Assembly (NCBI GenBank): GCA_023480825.1
Contig: JAMCWQ010000017.1
Location: forward strand, 1 to 58,643
Source of the DNA: Chloroflexota bacterium
Lineage (GTDB): Bacteria; Chloroflexota; Chloroflexia; JAMCWQ01
Direction of reading: 5' to 3'
DNA length: 58,643 bases
A model generated the notes under the pieces. That model saw only the letters and a program-made list of their open reading frames with translations, had not been told where the DNA came from and did no database searches. This document shows positions 6,500-49,388 of this stretch, one piece after another. How positions within the stretch are numbered: position 1 is the stretch's first letter; each line of letters starts with the position of its first letter. The position numbers were made by a program, and so were the translations under genes.

Positions 6500-6514
6500 C
6501 TACACCCCCAATAC

Positions 6515-7978: not shown

Positions 7979-8410
7979 CAGGCTCTTTCTCCGGATTACG
8001 ACAGATGACGCGCGCCCCCCGGCCTTTGCCACCAACACGGTCAAGCGTTGAATAGGTTTATTTTGCTTCCGCCAGCGTCTTCGGCTGGTAAATGAACAGA
8101 ACATCACGGTAGAGAAGTTCATAGAGGACAGGTTAGCGGCTTGCCAGAGCAACACCACCTCCATCAACACCCGCAGGACCCTGCCGCAAGGCTGCTGGCG
8201 GAAGGCCCATATTTCTCCGATGAGCTGGCGCCCGAAGAGAATGGAGTGCGCTCGGCGTGACGAGCTGATACTTCCCCGGTCGCTCAACCGGCGAATCAGG
8301 GCCACCAGTTGTCAGTAGGTTCTGCATGCCATGAGCGGCACACTTCTTGCGTTGCTTATCCGGGTCTTCCACCCGGGATCCGCTATAGTATTTAGACAGG
8401 GGATCAATTG

Positions 8411-21259: not shown

Positions 21260-21972
21260 CCCGAAACTACCTCGTGACCACGCACTCTGATCTGCCACCA
21301 AGTCCTCATCATGTCCAGAAATGTCTTGGCCACCGCCCCTACCCTGCCACCGCGAGCTTTGCCACCAGCACGAGGATGATAGCTCGTCTCCACTTCGGCA
21401 AAGCGATAACCGGATCGACAAGCCCTTACCACGATCTCTCCACAAAAGAAGATTCCCCTTGACCGGACGTGGACTCTGCTAAAGATGTCCCTCCGGTACA
21501 GATGGACCCAGTTGATATCTCGAAAAGGCACGCCGAAAAGCAGCCTCATAAGACGCATAAAGATGGCGGAATTCATTCTCCGGTACAGTGAATAGTCGCT
21601 CCGGCTGCTCCGGTATCCCAGGACGACGTCCGCGTTATCGGCAGCTGATAATAGTCTTCCGAGCTCCTTTATGTCAAACTGGCTGTCGGCCGAATTGTAT
21701 GTTATCAGTTCTTTACGGGCGGCGGCAATTCCGGTCAGCACGGCTCCCCCGAAACCTTGGTTCTCAGCATGGCGGATAGCCCTCACTTCGCCATGACCAG
21801 CCGCCTCCCTCTCAGCGATGGAGAACGTCCGGTCGGTGCTGCCATCGTCCACCACTATGATCTCAAAATCCGCGGCCAACGCGGCCAAGGCGGCCCGCGT
21901 GTCCGCTATTGCCCTGGCAAGGTTATCTTCCTCGTTGTATGCGGGAATGATCACGGAGATGCCCGGCTGCAA
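21256..21972 (-). CDS. GT2 glycosyltransferase, DPM1/Ppm1-like polyprenyl-phosphate sugar synthase candidate (no TM tail)
   Basis: Motifs are 'ISVIIPAYNEEDNL', 'IIVVDDGSTDRT', 'NQGFGGAV' and 'NSADSQFD' (a DxD-like acidic motif). The protein is 238 aa. Confidence 0.75.
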   Translation of the reverse strand: MQPGISVIIPAYNEEDNLARAIADTRAALAALAADFEIIVVDDGSTDRTFSIAEREAAGHGEVRAIRHAENQGFGGAVLTGIAAARKELITYNSADSQFDIKELGRLLSAADNADVVLGYRSSRSDYSLYRRMNSAIFMRLMRLLFGVPFRDINWVHLYRRDIFSRVHVRSRGIFFCGEIVVRACRSGYRFAEVETSYHPRAGGKARGGRVGAVAKTFLDMMRTWWQIRVRGHEVVSG

Positions 21973-23247
21973 TTACCCCTCCGTCTTTCCCACTCCAGGG
22001 CGCCAAGCAGTCAAGCTGGTGTAGTACTGAAACAGTTCACCAAAGAGGCGGAGAATCTCGCTGGCGCTAAGTGCGGAGGTCTCCACAAAGGCTTCGTACT
22101 CTCCCTGACGTCCTTTCACCCAGCTCTTCTCCTCAGGCATTGGCAGGAGGCGTATGTCGTATCGTTCGGGATGATTGTGGATTGGCGTGCCGACGTATGG
22201 TGCAAAAATGTTGAAGCCAAAGCGGTCGGGCCGGACGGTCGCCATCCAGCGTCTGGTCTCCTCGACCGTCTCGTAGGTCTCGCCGGGCAGGCCGATCATG
22301 ATGAATACGTTTACAGGGAGGCCGATTTCCTTGCAGTGGAGCACGAACTCGGTGTTTCGCTCCACAGTTGTGCCTTTGCTGACGACATCCAGAATCTTCT
22401 GGGACCCGCTCTCGATTCCCACGCCCACCTCGATGCAGCCGGCGTCTTTCATTGCGATTAGCATCTCTTTGGTAGTGGTGTCGGCCCGCGCATAGCAACG
22501 CCACTTGATGCCCAGGGGTCTGATACCTTCGCACAGGGCCAGCAGGCGATTCTTGTTGATGGTAATCAGGTCGTCAAGGAAAAGGAAGTGGTCAAACCCA
22601 TACTGATCGATAATGGAATGAAGCTCCGCCAGCACGTAGTCCACGCTGTGCAGCCGGGCTCCACGTTGCCAAACATCTTTTGAGCAGAAGGCGCAACTAA
22701 AAGGGCAGCCTCTACTGGTCATCAGAGTTGTGGCCCGGCCGCCGTCGATCCGGTAGCCATAACCATGTATCGGCAGCAGGTGACGGGCCGGCGGCGCGAT
22801 CGTGTCTATTTGCCGGATATAAGGCATTCGCAAGCTAGGAGGAATCGGAAGCCCTCTTTGGACCAGACTTGCCAACTCCACGATTGCCCGCTCTCCTTCG
22901 CCAGCAACTACGCAGTCAAAGCCGTCCGCCTGGCATTCCTCAGGAGCGGACGACGGGTGCGCTCCACCGATGACAATGGGAGAAGAATGGCCAGTCTTCC
23001 TCAGCGCGGCCAGGACCCTCCTGGCCCAGGGATACTGTGGAGTAGTTGCCGTGAGTCCATAGAGGTCTGCAGTCTCTAGACTGCTGGCATACTCCTCGAT
23101 CTCCCCTTCCTTACCGCCGAAATCGATGACACGCACCTTCACGCCCTGCGACTCCAGGGCGGATGCCAGATAGAGCACTCCTAGCGGCGGGAATGCCTTT
23201 TGGTCGATAAGGAATGGACTTGGGGGGACTATTAAGGCGACTCTCAA
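21973..23247 (-). CDS. B12-binding-domain radical SAM enzyme (class B-like)
   Basis: The N-terminal Rossmann/B12-like region contains 'PPLGVLYLASAL...VIGGAHPS'. The CX3CX2C cluster motif is 'RGCPFSCAFCSKD'. Confidence 0.8.
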   Translation of the reverse strand: MRVALIVPPSPFLIDQKAFPPLGVLYLASALESQGVKVRVIDFGGKEGEIEEYASSLETADLYGLTATTPQYPWARRVLAALRKTGHSSPIVIGGAHPSSAPEECQADGFDCVVAGEGERAIVELASLVQRGLPIPPSLRMPYIRQIDTIAPPARHLLPIHGYGYRIDGGRATTLMTSRGCPFSCAFCSKDVWQRGARLHSVDYVLAELHSIIDQYGFDHFLFLDDLITINKNRLLALCEGIRPLGIKWRCYARADTTTKEMLIAMKDAGCIEVGVGIESGSQKILDVVSKGTTVERNTEFVLHCKEIGLPVNVFIMIGLPGETYETVEETRRWMATVRPDRFGFNIFAPYVGTPIHNHPERYDIRLLPMPEEKSWVKGRQGEYEAFVETSALSASEILRLFGELFQYYTSLTAWRPGVGKTEG

Positions 23248-23250
23248 GAC

Positions 23251-24390
23251 CTAAGCACGTTCCTTCTCGAAATCTCGCACAGAGGCGGCCACCCACTCGA
23301 TCTGCTCGCCTGTCAATTCGGCAAACATTGGGAGAGAAAGAAGCTGCGCGGCCTGTGCTTCCGTAACCGGGAAATCGCCAGGCTTGTATCCGAGATGAGT
23401 ATAGGCGGGCTGCAAGTGGATAGGTATGGGGTAGTGTATACCGGTGCTGATTCCACGGCCGCCAAGGAACTTCTGTAGCTCATCCCTGTACGGTGTCCGG
23501 ATCACGTAGAGATGGTAGACCGACACCACACCCGGCGCTACCACTGGTGTGACGACTTTCAGCCCGGCCAGTAACTGGTTGTAGCGTTCGGCAGCCTTAC
23601 GCCTCGCCTCGTTCCAGGAGTCCAGTCTAGGGAGCTTCACTCGCAACACGGCCGCTTGCATAGTATCCAGCCGGCGGTTGTAACCGGCGAACTGGTGGTG
23701 ATACTTCACTCGCTGCCCGTAGTTGCGGAGCATTCTGATATTTTCCGCCAGCTTGCCATCGCTGGTGACAATGGCGCCCGCATCCCCGTAGGCGCCGAGG
23801 TTCTTCGACGGATAGAAGCTGAAGCATCCGGTGCTACCCATAGAACCGGCCTTCTTGCCCTTGTACAGGGCCCCATGCGCCTGGCAAGCATCTTCAATGA
23901 CGGCAAGACCGTTCCGGCCGGCAATCGCCAGGATAGCGTCCATATCGGCCGGCTGCCCATAGAGGTGCACCGGCATGATGGCCTTAGTGCGCGGGGTTAC
24001 GGCGCGCTCGATAGCGTTGACGTCGATATTGTAGGTGCCCGGATCAGCGTCGACCAACACCGCTTTGGCCCCCGCCGAATTTATCCCGAGAGCCGTAGCG
24101 ATGAAAGTGTTTGCGGGGGTTATTATCTCGTCGCCGGGTCCTACTCCCAGTGCCCGCAGGCTCAACTCCAAGGCAGAGGTGCCATTATCGAGGCCGATTG
24201 CCTCGGAGGCGCCGCAATATTGGGCCCATTCCTGTTCGAACGCGCCTACCGCTTCTCCAAGGATGAAGTCTCCCCTTGCTGCAGACTGGAGCAGAGCCTC
24301 GTTCACCTCTGCTTCGATACTCCGGTACTGTGCTTTCAAGTCTACGAATGGGACCTTGGGCCCCGCCGTAGCTTTGACGGCCTCAACCAT
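23251..24390 (-). CDS. DegT/DnrJ/EryC1/StrS-family PLP-dependent sugar aminotransferase (WbpE/GnnB-like)
   Basis: Motifs are '[19 protein letters not shown]', '[13 protein letters not shown]' and '[20 protein letters not shown]' (the catalytic Lys region). Confidence 0.9.
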
Positions 24391-25021
24391 GTTTCTTCGC
24401 CTCCCTACTCATCACGTCCAGCCCCTCGACATAGGGCCGGTCCACCATGCCTTCTTTGCAGGACAATTCATTCACGTTGCAAACAACACGAGCCGGATTA
24501 CCGTATACCACCGAGTAAGGGGGGACATCTTTAGTAACGACACTTCCCGCTCCGACTAGAGCCCCTTCCCCGATCGTAATGCCAGGGAGAAGGGTGACGT
24601 TGACCCCGATGCGTGCTCCGGCCTTGATGGTCGGACCCCGCATGCACTTAGTGCACAGGGGATGAGGGTCGTTGGCGATGGCGACGCTAGGAGCGATGAA
24701 CACGTCATCTTCAATAACCGTGAATTGCGCTATGTATACGTTGCTGTGCACTTTCACCCGGTCGCCGATAACGCAGCCGTAGTCCACCACCGAATTGTTC
24801 CAAATGGAGAAACCATCGCCAATCCGGTTTTGTTCTCTGATGACCACGTTGTGGCCGGTCTCCAAGCCATTGCCGGCGACCACGTTGGTGTAGACGACGG
24901 TTCCTGAGCGCAACTTCGCGTTGTCGCCGATTACCGTTTCCTCCGGATCGATGCGCCGGCCGGTACGGTAATCCAATTGGACCGTTGGGTCCAGTTGCGC
25001 ATTCTTCCCCATAATTGCCAT
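24383..25021 (-). CDS. left-handed beta-helix (hexapeptide-repeat) sugar N-acetyltransferase (WbpD-like)
   Basis: Repeated [LIV]-G-x-x-x-x hexapeptides run throughout, for example '[33 protein letters not shown]'. Confidence 0.85.
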
Positions 25022-25024
25022 GAC

Positions 25025-26065
25025 CTACAACTCCACCGGTGCCCCGTGCTGCCGGAGCGACTTCTCGATAGCCACCATGGTGCGAACCACGGCGAGCCCG
25101 TTTTTCCCATCGGAAATGGGAGTAGCGCCCGACTCCACGCAGTCGAGGAAGTGCTGGCATTGGACTTTGAGAGGTTCGCTCGCCTCGATCTTGGGACTGA
25201 TGATATCGCCGTCCCGCAGTTGAAGCTGGAATTCGCCGAAGCTATCCACTTCGCCGCTGATGGTCACTCCCTTTTCGAAGATGCGTACTTTCTCCAAGGC
25301 ATCGATGTCGTTGAACACAATCCTCTTCTTGCTGCCCACAACCACAACTTCTCTCACCTTGTTGGAGTCGATCCAGCTGACGTGAATGTTGCCGAGGATA
25401 CCGCCGGGGTAGGCAATGGTGGCGAAACCAACGTCCTCCCGGTTGTTCTGTAGAAGGCGGCTACCGACTGCGCTTACCCAAACCGGCTCTTTGCCGACAA
25501 GGTAGTTGAAGATGGAGATATCATGCGGCGCAAGGTCCCATATGGCATTCACGTCCTTGCGAATAAGGCCAAGATGTGTGCGGGTGGCATGCATGTAGTA
25601 GATTTCGCCAAACTCGTCATTGCTGAGGAGCGACTTCACTTTCTGCACGCCGGCATTGAACAGGAAGGTGTGCCCGACCATCAGAGTCAGACGCGAACGC
25701 TCGGCAATTTCCACGAGCTCCCGGGCTTCCTCACTTACCAGCGTAAGGGGCTTTTCCACAAGCAGGTTCTTGCCGCTTCGCAGGACCTCCAGGCTGATTT
25801 CAAAATGGGTTGCGGAAGATGTCGCGACCACCACGGCGCTGACCTCGGGATCAGCCACGACATCATGCAAATCGCGCGTTCTCGCCGCATTGGGGGCACG
25901 CCGCCCAGCTATGTCCAGGCGCCCTGAATCCTTATCGCAGATCCATCCTATACTGGCATTGGGGAGCTCACCAAACACCCGGACGTAATTCATTCCCCAA
26001 TAGCCGCACCCGACTATGGCTACCTTCTGCAAACCGTCCTCCTTTGTCGACTCCCGCGCTGCCAC
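25025..26065 (-). CDS. Gfo/Idh/MocA-family NAD-dependent sugar oxidoreductase (WbpB/GnnA-like)
   Basis: The N-terminal dinucleotide fold is 'KVAIVGCGYWGMNYVRVF'. 'LLVEKPLT' and 'MVGHTFLFN' are typical of the family. Confidence 0.85.
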   Translation of the reverse strand: MAARESTKEDGLQKVAIVGCGYWGMNYVRVFGELPNASIGWICDKDSGRLDIAGRRAPNAARTRDLHDVVADPEVSAVVVATSSATHFEISLEVLRSGKNLLVEKPLTLVSEEARELVEIAERSRLTLMVGHTFLFNAGVQKVKSLLSNDEFGEIYYMHATRTHLGLIRKDVNAIWDLAPHDISIFNYLVGKEPVWVSAVGSRLLQNNREDVGFATIAYPGGILGNIHVSWIDSNKVREVVVVGSKKRIVFNDIDALEKVRIFEKGVTISGEVDSFGEFQLQLRDGDIISPKIEASEPLKVQCQHFLDCVESGATPISDGKNGLAVVRTMVAIEKSLRQHGAPVEL

Positions 26066-26075
26066 ACAACACTCT

Positions 26076-28016
26076 CTAGTGGTAAGCGAAGATTATCCGG
26101 TCGAACCAGACAGCCATCCCCTGCCAGGCCACAAACAACATCAGCAGCGCCAGCACGGAGCGCCCGGCCCACGATCTCCAACCGAGATGCGCCAACAATA
26201 CTCCAGCGGCCAGGGCTAGTGCGGTAGTGGCGAAAAGCTCGTGCCGGGATTCCATTCCCACAATTGCGCCAAATGCCCCAAAGGCGCCGGCAGCTAGCGT
26301 CCACGCCGCTATGGCGAGGATGAACACCCGTGCCCGCCGGGCCAATGCCGCCACCCCAGCCCCGGCAACCAAGAAAGCTGGAGAGAAAGCGCCCAAGAGA
26401 CCGAGGTCGCTGACGGACAGCCGGCCTATCCTTCCCAGTGCCGAGCCAGCCGCACTGCTTTCTCCGCCGCCTCCGAGGGCAGTCGCCTGTCCAGCAATCA
26501 GCAAGACGAAATGGGAGTAATAGACGAGGGAAACCAAAATCAGCGCGACAACAACAGGCAGCGCCGCGTACAAGGTTCGGATTCTGCTTTGCCAATCTAG
26601 AAACAACAAGCATAGCATCAGGAACAAAGCCACACTGAGAAGGCTGAGCAGCAAGCTACCATAGTGAGAAGTGAAAGTCAAGGCAGAGGCGGCCAGGACC
26701 AAGATGAAGGAGAGGACAGGCGCCAAGGGCTTGGTTATGACGGTGATGAGAATGGCGATCAGTAGGAGAGCCGCCCACTGCCCAAACAAATTGGTGTGGT
26801 TTCCCCAGGAAAACACCATGAACGTGTAGGGAGTGAAAGAATAGACGAAGCCCGCCAAAGTCGCTGCCAGCCCCCCGAAACCGGCCCGCTTTACGATGTA
26901 GAAGACAAGGAAGACTCCGGAAGCATCCAGGAGACTGCTGGATAGGGCCAGTAGCATCTCGTGGTTCGACCACAAGTAGCCGAAGGGAGCCAAGAGCAGA
27001 TAATAGGCTGGAGGGTACGGGGCGTCGCGGCCATCAGGAAGGGGGTTGGTGAAGACTAGATTGCCGGTCATCACGGTCTCCAGGCGATGCGCATGCATGG
27101 TCAGATCGCTGGAGACGAACTGGGGGTAAATCATGCCGCCGAACCGGATGGCGAATGCCAGGCCGAAGATGCCGGATATGGCGGCGATCTCCCAGCCCTC
27201 GACCCTCCAACCCCTTGTGGCCGCCAGCAGTCTGCTGGCCAGGCGGGCCAACAGTGAAAGGACACAGGCCGCGGCAGCCAGAGCGGCCAGTTGACCGGCA
27301 AAGACTGTGATGCCGAGGCGGTGAAAGGCTATGAGAAAGGCCAATACCAGTATGGCGCCGAAAAGGGCGATCGCCGCCAGGCGGACCGGAACCCTTGACT
27401 GGATCAACCAGAGGAAGGCGATGGCAACTGCTATGATGAGCAACGGGAATACGGGGATCGCTGGAACAACTATCCACCGGTCCGCCGCGGGTAGTGGAGA
27501 CACTTGCACGGAATCAACAAAGACGCCGAGGTGCCGGGCATCATTTTGGGGCACAAAGGTGTCCGATTCGATGGTAATATCCAGATCGCTTAAGCCCAGC
27601 GTTTTGCCTCGGACAAGAAAGGAATACGTCTTGAGAGTTCCATCCGGGACAATCTTCCCCACCTCTTCACCGTTGGCCAGCACTCTGACATTGGGACTGG
27701 CCACTCCCTCTGGGCGCCAACCGTTGAGCGCAAGGTTGACTTGCACCGGACCGGGATTGCCAACGCCGGGGAAAGACACTGTTGCCGTCTCGCCGGACCA
27801 GCGGTAGGTCAGGCTGCCGTTGTGCTCCGGCTGGTGAAACCCGGTCACAAACGGCATGTCCAGTTTGCCGCCAATATCAATACCGTAATCCGGCCTATTC
27901 TGATAGCCTACTGTTATAGCCAAAGCGGCAAGCGCCAAGATGAGGTAGAATTCCCAACTCTTGAACGCGAGGCGAGCCAGTCGCAATTCCTCCAGAAGCG
28001 CCAGTCTCACAGTCAT
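26076..28016 (-). CDS. large polytopic membrane protein: N-terminal anchor plus extracytoplasmic 'DIGG-YRW-LGV' beta-rich module plus about 12 TM GT-C-like body (tandem paralog 1 of 3)
   Basis: The ORF track gives 26076..28124. I trimmed it to the ATG at 28016, which has GGAGA 9 nt upstream and lies 13 nt after the upstream stop. The module spans about nt 27492-27905. The loop motif is 'FVSSDLTMHAHRLETVMTG'. Confidence 0.7.
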   Translation of the reverse strand: MTVRLALLEELRLARLAFKSWEFYLILALAALAITVGYQNRPDYGIDIGGKLDMPFVTGFHQPEHNGSLTYRWSGETATVSFPGVGNPGPVQVNLALNGWRPEGVASPNVRVLANGEEVGKIVPDGTLKTYSFLVRGKTLGLSDLDITIESDTFVPQNDARHLGVFVDSVQVSPLPAADRWIVVPAIPVFPLLIIAVAIAFLWLIQSRVPVRLAAIALFGAILVLAFLIAFHRLGITVFAGQLAALAAAACVLSLLARLASRLLAATRGWRVEGWEIAAISGIFGLAFAIRFGGMIYPQFVSSDLTMHAHRLETVMTGNLVFTNPLPDGRDAPYPPAYYLLLAPFGYLWSNHEMLLALSSSLLDASGVFLVFYIVKRAGFGGLAATLAGFVYSFTPYTFMVFSWGNHTNLFGQWAALLLIAILITVITKPLAPVLSFILVLAASALTFTSHYGSLLLSLLSVALFLMLCLLFLDWQSRIRTLYAALPVVVALILVSLVYYSHFVLLIAGQATALGGGGESSAAGSALGRIGRLSVSDLGLLGAFSPAFLVAGAGVAALARRARVFILAIAAWTLAAGAFGAFGAIVGMESRHELFATTALALAAGVLLAHLGWRSWAGRSVLALLMLFVAWQGMAVWFDRIIFAYH

Positions 28017-28029
28017 CGGCTGCGGTCTC

Positions 28030-30087
28030 CTAATGCCCGGCATACAAGATGCGGAAGATCCAGAACGATACCGCCGACCAGGCCAGCGTGGCAAAAAGCA
28101 TGTAGCCGGTAATCCGGCCCGCAACGCCGCGCGAGCTTAGCCGGTCAAGGAGTATTCCGAGCCCGATGGAGAGAGGCACCATCGCATAGAAGAGGTGTTT
28201 CCCGATCATATCCACATGCATACCCACCACGGCAAATACCACCGGTATGGTGAGCCAGGCGATCAGGAGAAGCCAAAACCGGTCTAGTCTTTCCACCCTG
28301 TATAGCGCCAGCCCGAATATGGCCCCCACGAAGGGCAAGGCGGAGCCGTAGAACGTGAGGGACCACTGTACCGTGCTAACCAAGCCACCGGTACCCACCA
28401 CTTGTCCCGAACCGGTCGTCAATCGGCTGGCGTAAGCCGGAAGCGTGACCGTCAAGAGGGGAATCAAATACTGCATGTAGTAGCTCAGAAAAGCTACTAC
28501 CAACCCTCCAACAACTACCATAGCCAACTGGATGACTCGCCTCCGCTCCCAAGCCTCGGCCGGCCAGAGAAGCATCGAGACTCCCCAAATGCCCATGACA
28601 ATAGTGTTGAAGACCAGGATCGTCGGGAACGCCACCATTGTGGCCGCCAGCAACATAGTTGTTAGGGCAAAGGGACCGGCCCTGTTTAGATTGTGAAACT
28701 TGGTCAGGATAATGGCAAACGTGATGACTGTGAGCCACTGGGCGAAAATGGTCGGTAGAATGCCATAGGACAGCATGCGATAGGTGAGCGGAGTGAACCC
28801 GTAGACGGCGGCGGCAAAGAGCGCGGCACGCGGGCTGCCGTAGAACTTCTTGACCAGGTAGAAGATACCGAACAGCAAAGAGACATCCAGCAACGTCACA
28901 AAGAGTTTGACGGAGAGCTCGATAGGTAGCGGCAAGAAGCTAACCGGCGCCGCTATGAAGTAGAACAGGGGCGACTTGGGAATTAGAACGTCCATGTTCC
29001 ACTCGCTGGGCACCGACGACAGGGGACTAGGAAAGTACAGTTCGGCCCATTGGCCCGAGAGAACCATCCGCAGAAAGCGCATATGCCACGGCAGGTCGAT
29101 CATTATCATGTTGGGATACGCTAGACCGCCGAACTTGGCATAGAAGGCGACAAGCGCTACTGCCAGCAAAATGCGCCGGTGCTTCTCGCTCGTTTCCAGC
29201 CTGACCGCTTGAAAGAGCCAGCGGATGAGGCGCTCGCCGATGAGCAAGAGGGCCAGGCCAAGCAGGAGAACGAGAATCAGGTTCTTGGCATAGGGAGTGT
29301 AATCCAGACGCTGGAAAGCGACGGTGTAGGCGATGGCGAAAAGCATTGCCACACCCGCGATCGATGCCAGAGCCCTGATAAGCCAGCCCTTCGTGGTGGT
29401 CCCAAGCACCGCACGGCGGCCGGTGGCGTAGACGACACAAACTGCAAGCATCGCGTAGATCAATTGGCTGAGAGAAGGGAACACCAGACCGGCGCCGGTG
29501 GGCCGGTAGCTCACCCAATCCACCTGTGTTCCCAATTGAAGCCCGCGATTCCCCTCCGGATGGTAGGTATCACTCCTAAGCTCCACGACCAGGTCACGTG
29601 ACTGCGCTGCCGGTCCCGTGATGTCGTAGGAGTAGGTTTGCCAGCCGGGTCCCAGTTTGATCGCCGGCATGGCCTGCCCGTTGACAATGATTTCTAGATT
29701 CGGTGCCGGCTCCCCTGCCGGCCGGCCGGACGCCACTCTGAGCTGCAGCTGGAATGGTATACCACCGCCAATGCCTGGAAGCCTGATGTAGGAATAATTG
29801 TCGGTCCACCGGTACGAGACGCCGGCTCCAGCCTCTTTGCTGTGGAAGTTGTCGACATAGGCATCGTCATAGCCCCCACCGATGTCGACGGAATATGGAC
29901 GGCTGACCTGGTAGGCTAGCATGGTCAGGACCAGTGTGAGCAGGGCGAGTGTCCAGAATTCCCACGATCCGAGGACGGTCTTGAGCCAGGTAAGCTCGAT
30001 GCGAACCTCTCTCCCAATCTTGCCGGCAAAGGCCCGGCTTTCTCTGCCGGCCATAGGCCTCACCAGTCCGGTCTCAGTGGAAGGCAT
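28030..30087 (-). CDS. large polytopic membrane protein with the N-terminal 'DIGG-YRW' module (tandem paralog 2 of 3)
   Basis: The architecture matches 26076..28016. The module spans about nt 29500-29913 ('YSVDIGGGYDDAYVDNFH...VSYRWT...LPGIGG...GRP...VNG...QTYSY'). The loop motif is 'MIDLPWHMRFLRMVLSG'. The start is uncertain, either 30087 or the ATG at 30054. Confidence 0.7.
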   Translation of the reverse strand: MPSTETGLVRPMAGRESRAFAGKIGREVRIELTWLKTVLGSWEFWTLALLTLVLTMLAYQVSRPYSVDIGGGYDDAYVDNFHSKEAGAGVSYRWTDNYSYIRLPGIGGGIPFQLQLRVASGRPAGEPAPNLEIIVNGQAMPAIKLGPGWQTYSYDITGPAAQSRDLVVELRSDTYHPEGNRGLQLGTQVDWVSYRPTGAGLVFPSLSQLIYAMLAVCVVYATGRRAVLGTTTKGWLIRALASIAGVAMLFAIAYTVAFQRLDYTPYAKNLILVLLLGLALLLIGERLIRWLFQAVRLETSEKHRRILLAVALVAFYAKFGGLAYPNMIMIDLPWHMRFLRMVLSGQWAELYFPSPLSSVPSEWNMDVLIPKSPLFYFIAAPVSFLPLPIELSVKLFVTLLDVSLLFGIFYLVKKFYGSPRAALFAAAVYGFTPLTYRMLSYGILPTIFAQWLTVITFAIILTKFHNLNRAGPFALTTMLLAATMVAFPTILVFNTIVMGIWGVSMLLWPAEAWERRRVIQLAMVVVGGLVVAFLSYYMQYLIPLLTVTLPAYASRLTTGSGQVVGTGGLVSTVQWSLTFYGSALPFVGAIFGLALYRVERLDRFWLLLIAWLTIPVVFAVVGMHVDMIGKHLFYAMVPLSIGLGILLDRLSSRGVAGRITGYMLFATLAWSAVSFWIFRILYAGH

Positions 30088-32113
30088 ACATCACCCGCTC
30101 ATACCAAAGACTAGCGCCGGACCACAGGATGTACGCGACCATCATCAACGCGATCGCCTGCCCGGCCCATTGCTTCGGGAAGATACGCGCCAGGAAAATG
30201 CCGGACCCGATGGCGGCGACAGGCAAAAGGAAAAGCATGTAGCGCACGTACAGCCCGGTTAGAAACCCTACACCGGCAAAGGCGACGGCACTAATGACCC
30301 AAGCGGACATGAGCAACCCCAACCGCGAAGTCTTGTAGGCAGTAAACACCAATAGCCCTCCGAACAGCAGCCCGAACAAGGGCCAAAGCTCGAAGTACGC
30401 CCTCGCCTCGTGATACAAGCCTTTGATCCCCTGCACAACCAAGTCGCGAATCGAGTACACTTGTGTAGGCCGTAAGTCCAGCGAACGGTCGGATACTGAG
30501 CCGCCAACGTAGAAGACCCGGCTGTGATCTTGCTCGGCGGCGGTCTGTTGCCTTTCCTGGGCCATGGCCTCGGCCTCTCCGGTCATAGTGCCGACAAAGT
30601 GGGAGTAGTAGCCGCCAAAAGCGATTGCAGCCGCCAAAACGCCGGCTGCCACGAGAGCAACCGTGCCTTTCTCCAACCGCGTCCTCCGGTTTACCAGGAC
30701 ATTCAGGACCACGAACACCACCAGAGATACTGCCAGGAGTAGTACGACTCCCGGATGGGAGAGAAACGCCAGCAGCAGCGTGAAGACAAGAAGGATGAAT
30801 TTGGCCGGCCGGTGGAGTCTGTCGAAGCAGGTGGCGAGCAGCGCCAAAACGGCCAGCGCCAGCCATTGGCCAAACAAGTTGGTGGTGACACCCCAAGAGA
30901 ACACCAAGAAGGACAGAGGCATAATCACGTAGACCAGCGCCGAAAGAAATGCCGCACGGGCATCCTTGGTGACTTTGAACACTACGAAGAACATGAGGAA
31001 CAACCCCGAGGTGTCCATCCAAACGGTGAAGAGCTTCACCAGGAACAATTTGTCCTGAACAATCAGGGTTAGTGGCGCCATCAACAGATAGGCGGTGGGC
31101 AGATAGAAGGTGCTATGGCCTCCCCATTCTCCCGAGACTATCGTAAAGTAAATGCTGCCGCTGAGTACTTGTTCCAAGCGATGGACATGAAAAACGGCAT
31201 CCATGACGAAGTTCTGAGGATAGAGTTGCCCACCCAGCCGCACTACAAAGAGAATGGCAAATACGCTGAGCAGGGCGTTGCGGGCTCCTGCCGCTAACAG
31301 TACTCCTGACCGCTTGTACCAGAGTTCCACAATTAACGAGGTGATGGCCAGAACCATGTACGCCGCGATAAACGTCACCAGAAGCTGATCGGTGAACACC
31401 GAAAGCCAGAGACGGGCAAAAACAATCAATATGGCGAAAGCCAAGCCCAACAGGATCGCCACAAAGAGGGCTACCCTCCTCGATCCGCCCAATCTCAAGG
31501 CCAGTAACGCGCCGACAAGAATGATGACGAGAAGGGGAATGACCTGGCCGGTGGAGGGCAGGACAATCCCATTGCCCACCGGCTGTACGGTGATCTGGTC
31601 CACGGAGACTCCGAGGTCCCTGGCATCTCCTTCCGGCCTGAACGTGTCTGATTTCAGCAATAGATCGAGGTCACCGCTGGCAACATAGGCACGCGGCACT
31701 CGCAGGGTGATCGTTTCTGGGACTCCTGATGTCTGCTTGATACCCAGACTGTGCCCGTTGGCAAAGAATTCCACTTTTGGCGGCGGAGGACTGGGCCGGT
31801 AACCAACGAGCTTGATTGTCACCTCGTAGTCATCCTGGCCTATGCCGGGAAACGATATCGTGGAACTGGCTTTGCTCCAGCGGAAATTCATCTCCGGGCT
31901 GCTCTCCACAGCGTTGAAGTCCGCCACATATGGCCCATCGAAGATGCCGCCAATATCGAGGGGGTAAGCTCCTCTAAACTGATAGCCAGCGGCCATGAGG
32001 CAAAGGCCAAGTGCCAGAACCGGGTAGATGGGCCAATACCCCAGCAGCTTCCAAACCGGCTCGAGCTCGGAGCGTCCCCACTCGGTTATGGCTCTCCACA
32101 CCGTTCGCATCAT
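30074..32113 (-). CDS. large polytopic membrane protein with the N-terminal 'DIGG-YRW-LGV' module (tandem paralog 3 of 3)
   Basis: The ORF track gives 30074..32185. I prefer the ATG at 32113, which forms an ATGA overlap with the stop of the upstream GT4 at 32110. The module spans about nt 31579-31984. The loop motif is 'FVMDAVFHVHRLEQVLSG'. Confidence 0.7.
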   Translation of the reverse strand: MMRTVWRAITEWGRSELEPVWKLLGYWPIYPVLALGLCLMAAGYQFRGAYPLDIGGIFDGPYVADFNAVESSPEMNFRWSKASSTISFPGIGQDDYEVTIKLVGYRPSPPPPKVEFFANGHSLGIKQTSGVPETITLRVPRAYVASGDLDLLLKSDTFRPEGDARDLGVSVDQITVQPVGNGIVLPSTGQVIPLLVIILVGALLALRLGGSRRVALFVAILLGLAFAILIVFARLWLSVFTDQLLVTFIAAYMVLAITSLIVELWYKRSGVLLAAGARNALLSVFAILFVVRLGGQLYPQNFVMDAVFHVHRLEQVLSGSIYFTIVSGEWGGHSTFYLPTAYLLMAPLTLIVQDKLFLVKLFTVWMDTSGLFLMFFVVFKVTKDARAAFLSALVYVIMPLSFLVFSWGVTTNLFGQWLALAVLALLATCFDRLHRPAKFILLVFTLLLAFLSHPGVVLLLAVSLVVFVVLNVLVNRRTRLEKGTVALVAAGVLAAAIAFGGYYSHFVGTMTGEAEAMAQERQQTAAEQDHSRVFYVGGSVSDRSLDLRPTQVYSIRDLVVQGIKGLYHEARAYFELWPLFGLLFGGLLVFTAYKTSRLGLLMSAWVISAVAFAGVGFLTGLYVRYMLFLLPVAAIGSGIFLARIFPKQWAGQAIALMMVAYILWSGASLWYERVMYAFH

Positions 32114-33318
32114 TTCTCCTGATGGCAAGCCGAAAAAGGCAGTTGCCCGCATGCTTCGATCAGTGTCCTTGCGCCGCTGCTCCATTGAAAATTCCGGTCG
32201 ACGTATTCTCTGGCAGCAACGCCCATGGCCCGGGCTTGCTCAGGGTTCTCCAGCAGACTAACAATGCCACCAGCCAGTCCGGCCGGAGTGGAATCGACGA
32301 GCAGGCCCCGGGTCCCGTTGCCAACTGTCTTGGCCGGGCCTCCTTCGTCCACGGATACCACAGGCAACCCCGCTGCTAGCGCCTCCAGCACGGAGAGGCC
32401 AAAAGATTCCACCTTGGCAGGGTTGGCATACACCTGCGCCAGAGCGTAGTAGCTGGCCAGGTCGCCTTCGGGGACGAAACCCGTGAACATGACGCGGTCA
32501 TCAAGGCCGAGGTCAGCTACCAGCCTCTTGAGCCGGTCCATCTCGGGCCCCGAGCCCACTACCAGTCCGCGAATTCCGGGCACCTTGCTCGTGACCAACT
32601 TTATGGAGCGGATGAACAGATCGATCCTCTTGCGAGGGTGCAGGTGGTTGACGGTCATGACCAGCGGAGTCCCCTCCTCGATCCCCAGTCTCTTCCTGAT
32701 TTCCGCCGTTCTCTCTGGGGAGGGCTGTGGAAGATCGACGCCATGCGTGATGACAGTGGAATCGACCCCGTAGACTTCTTGAACCCTCCACCTGCCAAAG
32801 TCACCGTTGACAAGAATGGAATCAGCCTGGTGAACCAACAGACCATCCAGCACACGATACATCGGCAGCGCGAGCCGCGCCACCGGCCCCAGCGCCCCCA
32901 GCCTGGCGGACACCTCGGCGGTGTCCGTGTAAGCGAAGCGCGGTGGTTCGTAGCAGAAATATAGGCATGGGAACTGTACCCTTCTCACTTTTTTGGCCCA
33001 GGCCAGCGCCGGTAGTCCCGGCCCACCGAAGAAGACGGCGGCATCGAAATGGCTCCGGGCTCGTCCCAGCAATCGCGGTGTCAGAGCATACTCCAAGGCG
33101 GCATCCAAATAGTGATTACCCGTCAGCCGGATTTGGCCGTTGGCTCCTACCACCTTGACGGTCTTCGGTAGAGTCTCGCGGCACTCGCCATCGAGGTAAT
33201 GAGTGGCGAGAGTAACCCTGTGCCCAAGTTGCTCCACGAAGTCCGCTAGCTTGATGATAAGTCTCTCCGCACCGGTCAGCTTTTTCAGTTGGGGATAAAC
33301 AAAGAGAAATGACGACAC
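32110..33318 (-). CDS. GT4-family glycosyltransferase
   Basis: Motifs are 'LVVGSGPEMDRLKRL...VMFTGFVPEGDL' and 'ANPAKVESFGLSVLEALAAGLPVVSVDEGGP'. The start is a GTG at 33318. Confidence 0.85.
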   Translation of the reverse strand: MSSFLFVYPQLKKLTGAERLIIKLADFVEQLGHRVTLATHYLDGECRETLPKTVKVVGANGQIRLTGNHYLDAALEYALTPRLLGRARSHFDAAVFFGGPGLPALAWAKKVRRVQFPCLYFCYEPPRFAYTDTAEVSARLGALGPVARLALPMYRVLDGLLVHQADSILVNGDFGRWRVQEVYGVDSTVITHGVDLPQPSPERTAEIRKRLGIEEGTPLVMTVNHLHPRKRIDLFIRSIKLVTSKVPGIRGLVVGSGPEMDRLKRLVADLGLDDRVMFTGFVPEGDLASYYALAQVYANPAKVESFGLSVLEALAAGLPVVSVDEGGPAKTVGNGTRGLLVDSTPAGLAGGIVSLLENPEQARAMGVAAREYVDRNFQWSSGARTLIEACGQLPFSACHQEK

Positions 33319-33534: not shown

Positions 33535-35697
33535 TCAGCGCGAGATCGAAACATTGGAAACCGAGATTGATAGAAGTCTTTGGTCGTTACCCAAGCCGAG
33601 GTTTGCGGGAGATTCGGGTGGCTCCTCGCACACCAGTCTCAGCTCAGTTTCGCCTTTGGGTATTTCAAAATGCCCGGTGCTGAATTCGCCGATCGAACCA
33701 GGCTGAACGACGAAGTTGGCAACGAGACGGTCTCCAGCATAAACATCCAAAGTGCGCTTTCGCTGCAAGCTCCACGCTTGGAAATGCAGCTGAACAGACT
33801 CGCTAGTGGAGCTCACCGCTACCAGCGTAGCATGATCAGCCATCCACCTGGTCTGCCCTTGGTCGGTCGATTCCTTGTCGTACCATCCATTCCCGACCTG
33901 AACGAAGAGAGTGTCTCCCTTCTTCTCTACCCGGAACGCCGCAGCTTGGCCATCTTCAAAGTCCGGCGGATGACCGAACAGCGTCTCCGCCATCTTCATC
34001 GCTCTCTGGACGGCATCCGGTTTGTCGAGGTCCTTGTGCACCACGACGTAGCGAATGTTGTAGTAGTCTAGCACATTCTCGCCCATGCTTGGCAAGTCGA
34101 TTTGGTTTATGTCAGGTGCCATACTCAAAGTCACCAACTGCTGGACGCCGGGTGCGCTCTGCACAAAGGGGAAAGGCTGGACGCGCGACGTGTATCCGCC
34201 GACTATCTTCTTCCCGTCAACCGTCTGGTACAGCAAATAACGCGAACGGATGAGGCTGAACGGGATGTCAAGGACCCCAAACTGGCCGGGCTCCTGGGCG
34301 ATCTGCTCATAAACGCTGGGCACCTGGGCCTTTGAGATGGGAAAAGGTATGGCCAAGAACTCGAAACCAATTACCAGCAGCGCCAAGGCCGGGATAGCCA
34401 CATGATACTTCTGGAAGACCGGCCACCGTCTTCGCTTTGCGCTGCGCATAAGAGACAACAAACCCCAGGCCGCCATTACCCCCACGCACAGCATCACGAT
34501 GACGTCGAACCTCGCCACCGCCCGCGAGGTCTTGACGAAGGGAAGGTAGTAGAGCAGCAGGTAGGGTAGCGGTATGTTTGCCTGAAATGCCGTGAAAGTA
34601 GTGCGGCCGGCCACATGCAGTATCGGCCCCAGAGCGAGAACAAAGAAGATGGCGGCCACAACCAGCCAGAACCGGGTTTGCCGCCAGAAGCGCCACAGTC
34701 CGAGACCGGCGAGAGCTAGGGGGAGATACCCGGCAAACACGATCTTCTCCGCCAGTGGGCTGTTGTAGATATCCGTCCACTTGCTGGCAATGGCTCCCCA
34801 GAGCGGATTAAACGGACTGGGCGCGAAGAATGCCAGAAGATCGGGAGAGTGGTGGAGTGTTTGCACGGGATCGTAGACGGCATAGCTGCTTGTCATCGCC
34901 TCTCGTAGCATCGGCACCAGCAAGGGTGATGCTACTACCGTGAATACGCCGAGAACTCCTACGACCCTGACGGCATCGACAGCGAAAATGAGACGTCTCC
35001 GGCGGGCGGTGAATGCTCTATAAGCAAATAGGATGACGGTGAAGATGAGCAGGTACATCACGTAGTACCAATCCGCCAGTGCAGTCAGCGCCAGGAAGAG
35101 GCCAGCAATCGGCACGTATTTCCAGCGCATGGTATCCAGCGCCTTGAGGAGGAACAGGACGTAGAGGGGCAGCCACTCCATCGCTATAAGATTGAGATGG
35201 CCGAGGAGATGGGCGAAATGATATGGGCTGAAGGTAAATATGAATCCTGCCACGAACGAGGCAAGCCACAGTCCGGCTGTGCCTATGTCTTGTCTTCCTT
35301 CCTCCTTGGCGACGTGTCCTCCCAGCAGGTAGTGGGTCAGGAGATACGCGCCCCAGCCGGAAAAGGCGAATCCGGCGAACACGGCGACGTTGTAGGCCAC
35401 AAAGGCATTGAAGACTAACTGAAAAGGCAGGGTCACAAAGGCGTCGAACAGAGTCAGAGTATCAAAGTACAGATTGATGCCTGTCGGGAAGTACAGGAAG
35501 TCGGTATGGAATGGGCCGGAAGCTACCCCAGTGACTACCTGGCGCATCCACCACAGATTCCAGAAGTACTGCCAGTTGTCGCCGTTGGGCCCGGGAATGG
35601 CGTCCCCCATGTGCAACACTAGAGGATAAGTAAGGACAACAGTCAGAACGGCGAATGCAACGAGCGTAATGCCGTGCCGGAGCTTAGGACTACTCAC
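33535..35697 (-). CDS. 720-aa polytopic membrane protein, GT-C-like (family unassigned); paralog of 1838..3997
   Basis: It is colinear with 1838..3997 over its full length, at roughly 55-65% identity by eye. The motifs, TM pattern and C-terminal beta-rich domain are the same. Confidence 0.75.
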   Translation of the reverse strand: MSSPKLRHGITLVAFAVLTVVLTYPLVLHMGDAIPGPNGDNWQYFWNLWWMRQVVTGVASGPFHTDFLYFPTGINLYFDTLTLFDAFVTLPFQLVFNAFVAYNVAVFAGFAFSGWGAYLLTHYLLGGHVAKEEGRQDIGTAGLWLASFVAGFIFTFSPYHFAHLLGHLNLIAMEWLPLYVLFLLKALDTMRWKYVPIAGLFLALTALADWYYVMYLLIFTVILFAYRAFTARRRRLIFAVDAVRVVGVLGVFTVVASPLLVPMLREAMTSSYAVYDPVQTLHHSPDLLAFFAPSPFNPLWGAIASKWTDIYNSPLAEKIVFAGYLPLALAGLGLWRFWRQTRFWLVVAAIFFVLALGPILHVAGRTTFTAFQANIPLPYLLLYYLPFVKTSRAVARFDVIVMLCVGVMAAWGLLSLMRSAKRRRWPVFQKYHVAIPALALLVIGFEFLAIPFPISKAQVPSVYEQIAQEPGQFGVLDIPFSLIRSRYLLYQTVDGKKIVGGYTSRVQPFPFVQSAPGVQQLVTLSMAPDINQIDLPSMGENVLDYYNIRYVVVHKDLDKPDAVQRAMKMAETLFGHPPDFEDGQAAAFRVEKKGDTLFVQVGNGWYDKESTDQGQTRWMADHATLVAVSSTSESVQLHFQAWSLQRKRTLDVYAGDRLVANFVVQPGSIGEFSTGHFEIPKGETELRLVCEEPPESPANLGLGNDQRLLSISVSNVSISR

Positions 35698-37807
35698 CGG
35701 CGCCTCCGGCGTTTGTTTTGACGCTCACCCAATCAACAGCCACCCCGGCATACCTGGCATCCGAGCCATCGCCCTCCTCCGACATCTGCGAGCGAAACTC
35801 CACAGTCAGGGGCGTGTTGGCCTTACTCACATCCGCTACTTTGAAGGTGAAGAGCTGGAAATCCTCTGTCGCTTTGGCCGTCCCCACATCTTTGCCATTT
35901 ACCAGCACCTGTACTGGTAGTGCATTCGGGGACAGGCTCGCCATACGGATGCTGACCTCATCTGCGGTCGCGATAGGCCCGAAGCGGACCTCCGCATTCT
36001 CCCTCGCCCGGCGATAGGACACGCTATCTTTGTTTTCCGCCGGCCAGAAGCCGTCCACGTATCCGGCGTCCAGATAGCCGACGTCGACTCTCTGCCTCGA
36101 CTGCACGGGAAGCCATTTGAAGGTCCAGTCTAGGAGCGCCGCCTCGTCGTCGACATTGAACTGCTTTGCCGTCTTACTCGTATCGCCAGCCCGCCGGTAA
36201 ATCTCGCCAAGCCCGCCATGAGAACGCGGGTCATACGGGTTGACTTGGAGCGCCATCTCATACTGCTTTGCCGCCTCATTCGTCTTGCCGGTCGCCAGAA
36301 GCGTATTCGCCAGCCCTAGCCGTGCGTCGAGAAAATCCGGCTGGAGGCTCAGGGCAGCCTGATAGAATTTCTCCGCGTTGCCGTAATCGCCGACCAAGTA
36401 CGTCTGGTCGGCCTGTGTCTCAAGGCTTTGCCGGTCGAGGACCCGGCCGAGGACCAGGGGCACATTCTGGTAGGCGAACAGTTCCAAAATGACGAACAAA
36501 ACTGCCAGGGCAAGGGCGGCGCTTGCCCACCACTGTTTGCGCCACCGGAAGGCCCTTTCCACCACGGTAACGGCGAAGCAGGCCAGACCGATTATCAAGA
36601 AAGGCATCATGGGCAAGCGATAGCGCAGTCCGATGAAGTCGACGGGAGTGAATAGGGCAAGGACGAAGCAGAAGCCCAGCCATGCTCCGAACAGGGCTGC
36701 CGGCCTCCTCCGGCCGGAAAGGAACAACCCTGCCGGTCCAAGCGCCAGCGCCGCGAGGAAGGGGATGTCGCCCAGCAGTGTGCTTGCGGCGCGCTCCCCC
36801 CAAGAGACGCCTTTATCCACTCGAATAAGGTCCGGCAGATACTCCAGTTTTGCCAGGTAGAAGGCATTGGTCACCGCACTTTCCAAAGCCTGGCGAGGAT
36901 GCGATACCATATAGGACAAAGCTTGCTGGTAAGCATAGCGGTCGCGCTCGGCGTAGCCAGCTATCGGCAGCAAGACCTTCTCCATTTCCGATTTGTCCTG
37001 AAAGCCGCCATTCGCCAGCAGGAAGTTGTACCCACCGGTGGTGTCGACGGGAATGAAGGAATGGTAGACGAGTGCGTTACGCAGAGTCCAAGGGGACACC
37101 ACCATAACGAACGCAATGAGGAACACCGCGACCGTAGTCCAGCCCTTGTGCTTTTCCCGCCTGGCGGATAACCACACCCATATGGCGGCCAGCGGCAGGA
37201 AGAGGAGTGCATAGGAACGCGTCAAGGTGGCCAGGCCGAGGAGAACGCCGCCCGCCGGAAGCCATAGAAGCCGGCTGCCATTGACCGACCATCTGGTCAG
37301 CGCGTACATCGCCCCCAGCAGGAGAACGATAAACAGGGTCTCGGACATGACCAAGTTGCTGATGGTGGCCAAGGGTAGGTAGAGAGCGCAGGCCGCCATA
37401 GCGACGAGAGCGCTGCGCTCGCCGGCAATGCGCCGTGCAATGCCATAGACAAGTAGAACAGCAGTCAGTCCAAGCACCACCTGAACAAGGCGAATATCCA
37501 GTACAGAATATCCAAACAACTTGAAGACGCCAGCCAGGAAGAATATGTAGAGGGGCGGCCTAACCCACTTTGCCGGGTCGTAGTAGCCATCGCCCCCCGC
37601 CAGCATGGCAGCCCGGCCGTAGTATTCTCCCTGATCGCCGCCTTGGGGAACCTGCACCGTGGTGTCGAAATAATATACCCTCAGCAGAAGGGCGGCGAGC
37701 AGTATGGCGGAGATGGCAACAGGAATGACCCACGCCGGAAGAGGGCGTGCAGTCTGCGCCGGGACTGCGATTTCGGATTCGTTTTGTTGATCAGTCATAG
37801 CCGCCAA
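35690..37807 (-). CDS. ArnT/PMT_2-like GT-C glycosyltransferase with TPR repeats and a C-terminal 'YRx-xGVxVDWV' module
   Basis: The N-terminal body has about 11 TM segments, with 'GDQGEYYGRAAMLAGG...WVRPPLYIFFLAG'. The TPR block is 'GDYGNAEKFYQAALSLQPDFLDARLGLANTLLATGKTNEAAKQYEMALQVNPYDPRSHGGLGEIY'. The C-terminal module spans about nt 35720-36110. The start is the TTG at 37807 or the ATG at 37798. Confidence 0.75.
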   Translation of the reverse strand: MAAMTDQQNESEIAVPAQTARPLPAWVIPVAISAILLAALLLRVYYFDTTVQVPQGGDQGEYYGRAAMLAGGDGYYDPAKWVRPPLYIFFLAGVFKLFGYSVLDIRLVQVVLGLTAVLLVYGIARRIAGERSALVAMAACALYLPLATISNLVMSETLFIVLLLGAMYALTRWSVNGSRLLWLPAGGVLLGLATLTRSYALLFLPLAAIWVWLSARREKHKGWTTVAVFLIAFVMVVSPWTLRNALVYHSFIPVDTTGGYNFLLANGGFQDKSEMEKVLLPIAGYAERDRYAYQQALSYMVSHPRQALESAVTNAFYLAKLEYLPDLIRVDKGVSWGERAASTLLGDIPFLAALALGPAGLFLSGRRRPAALFGAWLGFCFVLALFTPVDFIGLRYRLPMMPFLIIGLACFAVTVVERAFRWRKQWWASAALALAVLFVILELFAYQNVPLVLGRVLDRQSLETQADQTYLVGDYGNAEKFYQAALSLQPDFLDARLGLANTLLATGKTNEAAKQYEMALQVNPYDPRSHGGLGEIYRRAGDTSKTAKQFNVDDEAALLDWTFKWLPVQSRQRVDVGYLDAGYVDGFWPAENKDSVSYRRARENAEVRFGPIATADEVSIRMASLSPNALPVQVLVNGKDVGTAKATEDFQLFTFKVADVSKANTPLTVEFRSQMSEEGDGSDARYAGVAVDWVSVKTNAGGAGE

Positions 37808-41161: not shown

Positions 41162-41174
41162 GGCAGACTCTCCC

Positions 41175-48392: not shown

Positions 48393-48395
48393 GAC

Positions 48396-49382: not shown

Positions 49383-49388
49383 GAGTCT

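Follow-up and report, generated by a model that had tools for sequence, protein, structure and literature searches.

We describe three consecutive membrane-protein genes, here named A, B and C, in a 58,643-nucleotide stretch of DNA from a Chloroflexota bacterium (contig JAMCWQ010000017.1 of assembly GCA_023480825.1), the whole of which is called the window below. Our analysis indicates that A, B and C very probably encode glycosyltransferases of the GT-C type. Because fold, sequence profiles and the position of an invariant aspartate agree, we file the three proteins as an undescribed family within GT-C class A, nearest to the ArnT/PMT_2 branch. As to their role, the likely overall picture is that they are extracytoplasmic GT-C enzymes using polyprenyl-phosphate sugars on one envelope glycan. 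What is new here is a family of hundreds of sequence clusters that lacks a counterpart in Pfam, NCBIfam and the PDB and of which no member has been characterised.

The tandem genes and their architecture

All three genes lie on the minus strand, and C is transcribed first. Gene C (30074..32113) is an open reading frame (ORF) of 679 aa; the NCBI call starts one codon later, at 32110, giving a protein of 678 aa, and a metagenome-assembled genome (MAG) of Chloroflexi encodes a 'hypothetical protein' with 100% identity to the product. The ORF of the middle paralog, B (28030..30087), encodes 685 aa, and that of A (26076..28016), the last paralog of the triplet, 646 aa from an ATG at 28016. Genes C and B overlap by 14 nt, B and A are separated by 13 nt, the next gene follows A after 10 nt, and the GT4 gene upstream of C overlaps it by 4 nt. 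AGGAG boxes were found upstream of the starts of A and C. The tight packing of the three genes and of their neighbours is as in an operon. Full-length BLASTP alignments gave 33% identity between A and C (E=3e-86), 28% between A and B (E=6e-61) and 29% between B and C (E=2e-48).

The architecture was deduced for gene C from hydropathy and from an AlphaFold2 model (predicted local distance difference test score, pLDDT, 87.7; predicted template-modelling score 0.87). A basic N-terminus is followed by an anchor helix, a beta sandwich (residues 50-178), three transmembrane (TM) helices and an 11-TM core. The core consists of helix 275-297, a 57-residue loop and then ten TM helices; a second long loop follows the helix that ends near residue 501. 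In the model, the chain stops 8 residues past the last TM helix. The N-terminus was predicted to lie inside, and the beta module and both long loops, including the one that carries the Asp discussed below, were predicted to be extracytoplasmic (hydropathy and positive-inside rule).

This layout can be compared with a first-pass annotation of the window. The three tandem ORFs were recovered with the boundaries given there, on the minus strand, and the pairwise identity, put at well under 40% by eye, was measured by BLASTP at 28-33%. A basic N-terminus, one TM anchor, a beta-rich module of about 135 aa and a polytopic body had been described as well and were all found again, the module measuring about 130-140 aa. 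The number of TM helices after the module, given as about 12, was a slight undercount: we find about 14, made up of the three extra helices and the 11-TM core.

Fold, conserved aspartate and sequence relatives

The model of C was compared with the PDB using Foldseek. The best 16 matches, and 19 of the 22 matches at E<=1e-3, were GT-C class A enzymes, while the other three covered the beta module alone. The matches of the membrane body comprised STT3 (8pn9, 7oci, 6s7o), AglB, PglB, EmbA/B, AftA, ArnT and DPY19, with a Foldseek probability of 1.0 and E-values for the GT-C matches down to 8e-6.

The GT-C class A core is defined as TM1, juxtamembrane helices JM1 and JM2, then TM2-7, and an essential Asp is found at the JM1 tip in all enzymes of the class (PMC12041299, which takes the definition from Alexander & Locher 2023). 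In the model of C, the TM helix at 275-297 is followed by a helix at 304-317, of which D305 is the second residue, by a helix at 340-350 and by a TM helix at 355-382. As modelled, this helix order is the TM1-JM1-JM2-TM2 arrangement of GT-C class A. The start of JM1 in C reads VMDAVFHVHRLEQVLSG (31157..31207, minus strand), with the D305 codon at 31199..31201. The corresponding motifs, read from the translations with their D-x13-G spacing, are MIDLPWHMRFLRMVLSG in B (29053..29103, minus strand; Asp331) and SSDLTMHAHRLETVMTG in A (27063..27113, minus strand; Asp304). This spacing at JM1 is common to A, B and C and to D, F, G and I, further GT-C-like proteins of the same gene cluster.

Residue conservation was counted in an alignment of 149 full-length family members, numbered as in C. 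D305 was invariant (149/149), as was P299, six residues upstream, and G319, at position +14 from D305, was present in 93% of the sequences. Position 624 was always basic (R in 131/149, K in 18/149); in C the R624 codon lies at 30242..30244 (minus strand) and the residue at the outer end of a late TM helix. R/K624 is a candidate donor-phosphate ligand, a role that we infer. H453 was a His in 89% of the alignment, and Y337, P339, Y342, P347, G408, Y503 and W670 were conserved at 89% or above. The JM1 motif of the family can be written P-x5-D-[LI]-x-[FL]-[HN], with a single acid. No second invariant acidic residue was found in the 149 sequences, nor any conserved metal site of the D-x-D or E-x-D type. 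The three motif strings quoted in the first-pass annotation, which had read them as a conserved acidic/histidine motif, are all present at the positions given above. The Asp, on whose conservation among homologs its GT-C proposal hung, is retained throughout. The other two parts of the motif fared less well: position 309 was H in 99/149 and N in 39/149 sequences, and 'RLE' is subfamily-specific, positions 311-314 ('HRLE') being variable among the 149 homologs.

Sequence relatedness to known GT-C enzymes was revealed by profile comparison with the family of gene D (41175..43649, minus strand; 824 aa). The product of this gene matches Pfam PMT_2 (37.8 bits against a cut-off of 26.1, E=3e-9) and carries the NCBI name 'glycosyltransferase family 39 protein'. 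Using hhalign, the full-length A/B/C family aligned with the gene D family at a probability of 100% over 600 columns (E=1e-44). Removal of the beta module left a probability of 97.8% over 344 columns (E=7e-13), and 97.1% (E=7.5e-11) was obtained from the first core helix on. When the family was set against the six PMT_2/PMT proteins of the window with a shallow profile, nothing but the beta module aligned; the core homology was visible only with the deeper alignment of the gene D family. A hidden Markov model (HMM) of the A/B/C core aligns weakly to D, F, H and I, and R624 aligns with the 'RY' of the window's PMT_2 proteins.

Gene D itself carries an anchor, a beta module and three TM helices as in A, B and C, then a GT-C core of the PMT_2 type, in which HADYAD (42690..42707) is invariant, and an additional C-terminal alpha/beta domain. 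The best Foldseek match of its AlphaFold2 model (pLDDT 85.5) was ArnT (E=5e-10). In this model the invariant H315-A-D317-Y-A-D320 opens helix 316-329, placing D317 like D305 of C. BLASTP of D against A, B and C aligned only the N-terminal 150 aa or so, at 34-39% identity. Gene D had been taken for a fourth copy in the first-pass annotation. The shared N-terminal architecture and the remote profile homology agree with that claim, but the core is that of an ordinary PMT_2 protein and there is no full BLASTP paralogy: D is a distant cousin of the same architecture, outside the A/B/C family. A precomputed Pfam domain, PF26626, was observed on some gene D homologs (P0172, P0174, P0181 and others) and on no A/B/C-family member.

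No family above threshold was found for A, B or C in Pfam, NCBIfam or the PDB sequences, and none of the 61 family members scanned attained any Pfam threshold. PMT_2 (PF13231) gave no match to A, B or C at E<=0.1, and 0/61 members matched it at E<=0.01. DUF6541 (PF20176) scored 25.1 bits on C, against a cut-off of 29, did not match A or B, and gave any match in 2/61 members; a literature search on DUF6541 found no papers. When family profiles were searched against the PDB sequences, one alignment gave 0 matches at E<=10, and a second profile gave noise and a marginal match to a carbohydrate-binding module (CBM; E~2). A word-index homolog search returned 23 relatives, unnamed and without precomputed Pfam domains. 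This number was misleadingly small compared with that of an exhaustive HMM search of 1.84 billion cluster representatives (50% identity) from public metagenomes, which gave 4687 matches at E<=1e-3, 2323 at E<=1e-10 and 849 at E<=1e-30. The best 150 of these were mostly full-length (626-774 aa), and most of the others were shorter fragments. The first-pass annotation was therefore right in naming no family, as nothing reached threshold in the three databases. Its proposal that a conserved Asp in an early extracytoplasmic loop marks a GT-C enzyme is now supported by fold, profile homology and Asp position, and the profile and fold searches yielded neither an HMM match to a family of another function nor a model without a GT-C core.

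The same relatives are also what could be expected if A, B and C glycosylated proteins, either as PMT-like O-glycosyltransferases or as STT3/PglB-like oligosaccharyltransferases acting on surface or S-layer proteins. The best Foldseek matches of C are STT3, AglB and PglB, and the nearest sequence relatives of the three proteins are PMT_2 proteins, annotated as GT39 by NCBI. PMTs, moreover, carry a lectin-like lumenal MIR domain. However, A, B and C have neither the WWDYG motif nor a C-terminal periplasmic domain, no MIR domain was detected by Pfam, and a second conserved acid for a metal site is missing. The domain appended to them folds like CBM6/35, as do those of Emb and AftD, enzymes that act on polysaccharides, and polysaccharide-assembly genes dominate the cluster. 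We consider an activity on proteins unlikely. Of its two forms, the oligosaccharyltransferase reading, drawn from the best fold matches, was rejected on the lack of WWDYG and of a C-terminal soluble domain, and PMT proper on the lack of a MIR domain and of an above-threshold PMT_2 match. Transfer to an envelope glycan is the reading that we prefer.

Orthologous arrays, the beta module and the gene cluster

A scan of one genome per species identified 25 loci, all in Chloroflexia or Chloroflexota MAGs; the scan pattern was biased to the C-type subfamily, and this all-Chloroflexia result sets no bound on the range of the family. As a rule, two to four family members stand in tandem in these loci. 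The common gene order is GT4, G-like, GT4, E-like, C (and C'), B, A, DUF2079, methyltransferase, GT4, GT4 and PMT_2-like, and the window matches it except for lineage-specific insertions. Four loci (L008, L009, L010 and L017) contain four tandem copies (C, C', B, A), the C-type gene having been duplicated again, where the window has three. In L014 (12005..14111), L018 (9371..12209) and L023 (3435..5646) one family copy was split across reading frames, its module and its core falling in separate ORFs; these could be assembly frameshifts or pseudogenes.

A neighbour-joining tree of 54 copies resolved three clades that keep the gene order. Gene C grouped with the copies at array positions 1 and 2 (bootstrap 100%), B with those at position 3 (bootstrap 100%) and A with those at position 4 (bootstrap 82%). 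Since the clades keep the gene order, the triplication predates the split of the window lineage from these MAGs. The first-pass annotation had taken the genes for old, diverged duplicates and had called for such a phylogeny; the tree bears this out, each window copy having positional orthologs with bootstraps of 82-100%. The lengths of the two extracytoplasmic loops are tight within each clade and differ between clades. The median loop from D305 to P339 has 34 residues in the C clade, 42 in the B clade and 32 in the A clade, and that from Y503 to G585 has 80, 54 and 58.5 residues, respectively. Clade-specific loop lengths would be expected of enzymes with different acceptor or linkage specificities. 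Together with positional orthology, these clade-fixed lengths make it more plausible that the three proteins carry out three successive linkage-specific steps on one substrate.

These data also bear on whether A, B and C might be duplicates that are functionally redundant and in decay, or membrane proteins without any enzymatic activity, such as scaffolds or transporters. Low identity between the copies and the absence of a functional annotation anywhere could be read in this way. Against it, the three ORFs are intact, all have the invariant Asp and a basic residue at position 624, and no transporter fold occurs among the listed structural matches. In addition, positional orthology and the conservation of loop lengths within clades indicate long-term purifying selection on three separate functions. 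We judge redundancy or a non-enzymatic role highly improbable, and continue with A, B and C as three distinct GT-C enzymes.

The beta module is encoded on the minus strand at 31580..31966 in C (residues 50-178, from DSSP strands), at 29491..29910 in B (hmmsearch E=2e-42; translation) and at 27486..27902 in A (hmmsearch E=3e-43; translation). Gene D has it at its N-terminus (43083..43499, minus strand), and genes G (37851..38264), F (35708..36100) and E (33541..33939) at their C-terminus, also on the minus strand, the copy of E being divergent (27.6 bits, conditional E=7e-10). The C-terminal copies on E, F and G had been overlooked in the first-pass annotation. One module thus occurs on seven membrane proteins of the cluster with three kinds of body: the A/B/C family, PMT_2 (D, F, G) and E. 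Foldseek matched the module to CBM6 (5fui, 1gmm), to CBM35 (2w1w) and to the carbohydrate-binding domain of BcsB. With the models of C and D, target-normalised TM-scores against CBM6/CBM35 entries were 0.54-0.63 (root-mean-square deviation, rmsd, 3.7-4.8 A), those for C alone being 0.54-0.60. The module, as modelled, has a CBM6/35-like beta-sandwich (jelly-roll) fold. Its best-conserved residues are D59, E70, R78, W79, D163 and R165, and such conserved polar residues with an aromatic are compatible with a predicted sugar-binding site. The presence of the module on seven enzymes suggests that all of them work on one polymer.

Gene G (37848..39929, minus strand) and gene F (35690..37807, minus strand) each encode a PMT_2 GT-C protein with a TPR region before the C-terminal beta module. 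Gene E (33535..35697, minus strand) encodes 720 aa with about 10 TM helices and the C-terminal module; it had no Pfam or NCBIfam match, and its single-sequence profile compared with the PMT_2 family gave a probability of 1.5%, which is not significant. A gene E-like gene lies directly upstream of the array in the Chloroflexia loci compared for synteny. Gene H (43652..46768, minus strand) has a GT-C-like domain of the LA_3751/LA_3752 family (E=2e-15) and, at its C-terminus, a polysaccharide deacetylase domain (PF01522, E=8e-7). It resembles the deformylase ArnD and ArnT fused in one protein, which hints that a lipid-linked N-acylated amino sugar is de-acylated extracellularly before transfer.

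From about 10998 to 58254 all genes of the window are on the minus strand and belong to glycan assembly. This cluster comprises twelve GT4-type glycosyltransferases, a Wzx-like flippase, a SAM methyltransferase and a B12-radical SAM enzyme, the GT4 genes at 32110..33318 and 39926..41233 having been typed by sequence pattern only, without a family scan. About eleven of its products are GT-C-like membrane proteins: a PMT_2-like protein (10998..12425), that of the DUF2079 gene, and A, B, C, E, F, G, D, H and I. In extracytoplasmic glycosylation, a GT2 enzyme charges polyprenyl phosphate with a sugar, the product is carried across the membrane by a flippase, and on the outside the sugar is transferred by a GT-C enzyme (PMC11127046). 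The cluster follows this logic, multiplied.

A candidate donor-supply triad was recognised by Pfam and NCBIfam at 46761..50312 (minus strand). It consists of a GT2 polyprenyl-phosphate sugar synthase-like gene (49389..50312, minus strand; AglJ or dolichyl-P-hexose transferase-like), a flippase-like membrane protein of the MprF type (48396..49382, minus strand; LPG_synthase_TM, with TIGR00374 above its cut-off) and a PMT-type GT-C gene (46761..48392, minus strand). The triad looks like a three-component extracytoplasmic glycosylation unit with an unusual flippase candidate. A sub-cluster directly downstream of A (19694..26065, minus strand) encodes a UDP-GlcNAc 3-dehydrogenase-like oxidoreductase, a hexapeptide N-acetyltransferase, a DegT aminotransferase, a B12-binding radical SAM enzyme, a GT2 and a DUF2079 protein. 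The GT2 is a small ArnC-like protein of 238 aa (21256..21972, minus strand). The two small GT2 proteins resemble AglJ, dolichyl-P-hexose transferase, PpgS and ArnC, all below the equivalog cut-offs. The sub-cluster looks like a pathway to an acetamido sugar, possibly C-methylated, which would then be loaded on polyprenyl phosphate. Its first four genes (oxidoreductase, acetyltransferase, DegT and B12-radical SAM) are absent from the syntenic Chloroflexia loci.

The content of the cluster would fit yet another activity for A, B and C, that of GT-C-fold polymerases or ligases moving undecaprenyl-diphosphate-linked repeat units, with a chemistry like that of Wzy or WaaL. The cluster encodes a Wzx-like flippase, the window proteins scanned included no recognisable Wzy or WaaL, and polytopic proteins in several copies could take on this role. 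On the other side, the structural matches are GT-C class A enzymes, with no Wzy, WaaL or SEDS protein among them. In sequence, A, B and C stand closest to enzymes of the ArnT/PMT type, whose donors are monophosphate-linked. The two GtrB/ArnC-like GT2 genes and the flippase-like gene likewise fit monophosphate-linked sugars. A polymerase or ligase activity therefore appears improbable to us, and monophosphate-linked donors are assumed for A, B and C in what follows.

Some genes of the window lie outside the glycan cluster. An ORF of 784 aa at 1838..4192 (minus strand), just outside it, had no Pfam or NCBIfam match and adjoins a gene for a PTPS_related (GT-C-like) membrane protein at 51..1811. 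At 4903..10987, on the plus strand and hence opposite to the glycan cluster, two tandem genes for Nramp-family metal transporters (4903..6240 and 6677..7978) precede one for a P-type cation ATPase (8408..10987).

Proposed activity and comparison with known systems

In the proposed mechanism, the sugar donor would be made by the GT2 synthases of the cluster and flipped by the flippase-like protein, and the core would bind this polyprenyl-monophosphate-linked sugar in the outer leaflet. D305, at the JM1 tip, would activate the acceptor hydroxyl, or act as nucleophile if the enzyme is retaining, and R/K624 with H453 and R292 would hold the donor phosphate. Catalysis is probably metal-independent because no second acidic residue is invariant, and metal-independent catalysis has been reported for AftA, ALG6 and PimE (PMC12041299). 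By analogy with the lectin-like CBM of EmbC (PMC3044687), the beta module may hold the growing envelope glycan as acceptor. A, B and C would then add different residues or linkages to the same polymer.

Several points weigh against this mechanism and, in part, against the class assignment itself. Whole-chain TM-scores of C with solved GT-C enzymes are modest (0.35-0.40), with large rmsd, partly because the C query includes four extra helices and the module. Polytopic hydrophobic composition may inflate the profile-profile score. The placement of D305 was read from the order of secondary-structure elements, not from a superposition. Moreover, the hhalign counterpart of D305 in gene D is D311, whereas models and ungapped spacing give D317. 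D311 was set aside in favour of D317, as the Asp is second in JM1 in both models and no gap interrupts the D-x13-G spacing. Every homolog is 'hypothetical' or unnamed, and the sampled cluster members are nameless too. As to the module, CBM60 was matched only below threshold (18.6 bits against a cut-off of 28.2, E=0.003, in 3/61 members), and the domain could mediate protein contacts instead of sugar binding. Finally, donor and acceptor were read from the gene neighbourhood only.

The envelope make-up of Chloroflexota is unresolved: some species have an outer layer, yet no lipopolysaccharide (LPS) and no LPS or BamA genes (PMC7332563). A, B, C and the cluster are concrete candidates for surface-glycan builders in this phylum. 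We tentatively propose, as a reading more doubtful than probable, that the cluster, whose core is conserved in Chloroflexia-related genomes, is an extracytoplasmic assembly line for an outer envelope polymer of LPS-less Chloroflexota and an independent analogue of mycobacterial arabinogalactan synthesis, in which case A, B and C would form a new CAZy-level GT-C family and the module a new CBM family. About eleven GT-C-type enzymes would take part, and the module on seven of them would direct these to the polymer they share. The active site predicted for the family (D305, R/K624) is clean and testable. A recognition module shared between enzymes offers a simple, testable model of how a multi-enzyme pathway is kept on one substrate, and the architecture extends the view of how GT-C enzymes recruit polymeric acceptors.

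Among known systems, it is STT3, AglB and PglB (GT66) that the model of C matches best in structure (E=8e-6 to 3e-4), and they have the GT-C class A core in common with it. They differ in possessing WWDYG, a C-terminal soluble domain and a D-x-D/E-x-D metal site, all of which A, B and C lack. ArnT/PMT_2 (PF13231; GT83/GT39-like) is the closest family by sequence profile. It shares the TM1-JM1(Asp)-JM2-TM2 order, the D-x13-G spacing and an aligned 'RY' near the end of the core. However, JM1 of PMT_2 proteins is of the D-E-x-x-Y or HADYAD type, in contrast to the single acid of A, B and C, and the TPR (F, G) or alpha/beta (D) C-terminal domains have no counterpart in the three proteins. The three-component Gtr, Arn and GT136 systems (PMC11127046) are built of the same parts as the cluster, a GtrB-type GT2, a flippase and a GT-C enzyme. 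Each has one GT-C, whereas the cluster has about eleven GT-C-like proteins, and they use a GtrA or MATE flippase where the candidate of the cluster is of the MprF type (LPG_synthase_TM/TIGR00374).

The likeness to the mycobacterial enzymes EmbA/B/C, AftA, AftB and AftD extends to several features. Fold matches include 7bvf and 8if8, with 6w98 for gene D, all of the same GT-C class A fold, and the essential Asp of this class stands at the JM1 tip (PMC12041299), the place that D305 takes in the model of C. In both groups diverged paralogs are found, each making a different linkage on one cell-wall polysaccharide in mycobacteria and, as we infer from the orthology and loop lengths, having its own specificity in A, B and C. 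Both have a module on the membrane core, a lectin-like CBM in EmbC (PMC3044687) and a putative carbohydrate-binding one in A, B and C. Extracytoplasmic action with lipid-monophosphate donors, decaprenyl-phosphate-arabinose for Emb/Aft, would be a further likeness, the donor of A, B and C being a putative one. The differences are that A, B and C have no Pfam arabinosyltransferase match and that their carriers are Chloroflexi, not Mycobacteriales. In addition, their module is N-terminal, with its own anchor helix and three extra TM helices after it, whereas in Emb proteins the soluble domains lie at the C-terminus or within loops. GT-C enzymes with carbohydrate-binding domains acting serially on a wall polysaccharide are already known from mycobacteria, and the present genes are not a new kind of system. 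What they add is a new architecture, in which the GT-C core comes after an N-terminal CBM-like domain with its own anchor and three extra helices, and the recurrence of one module on seven enzymes of a gene cluster that is conserved in this phylum.

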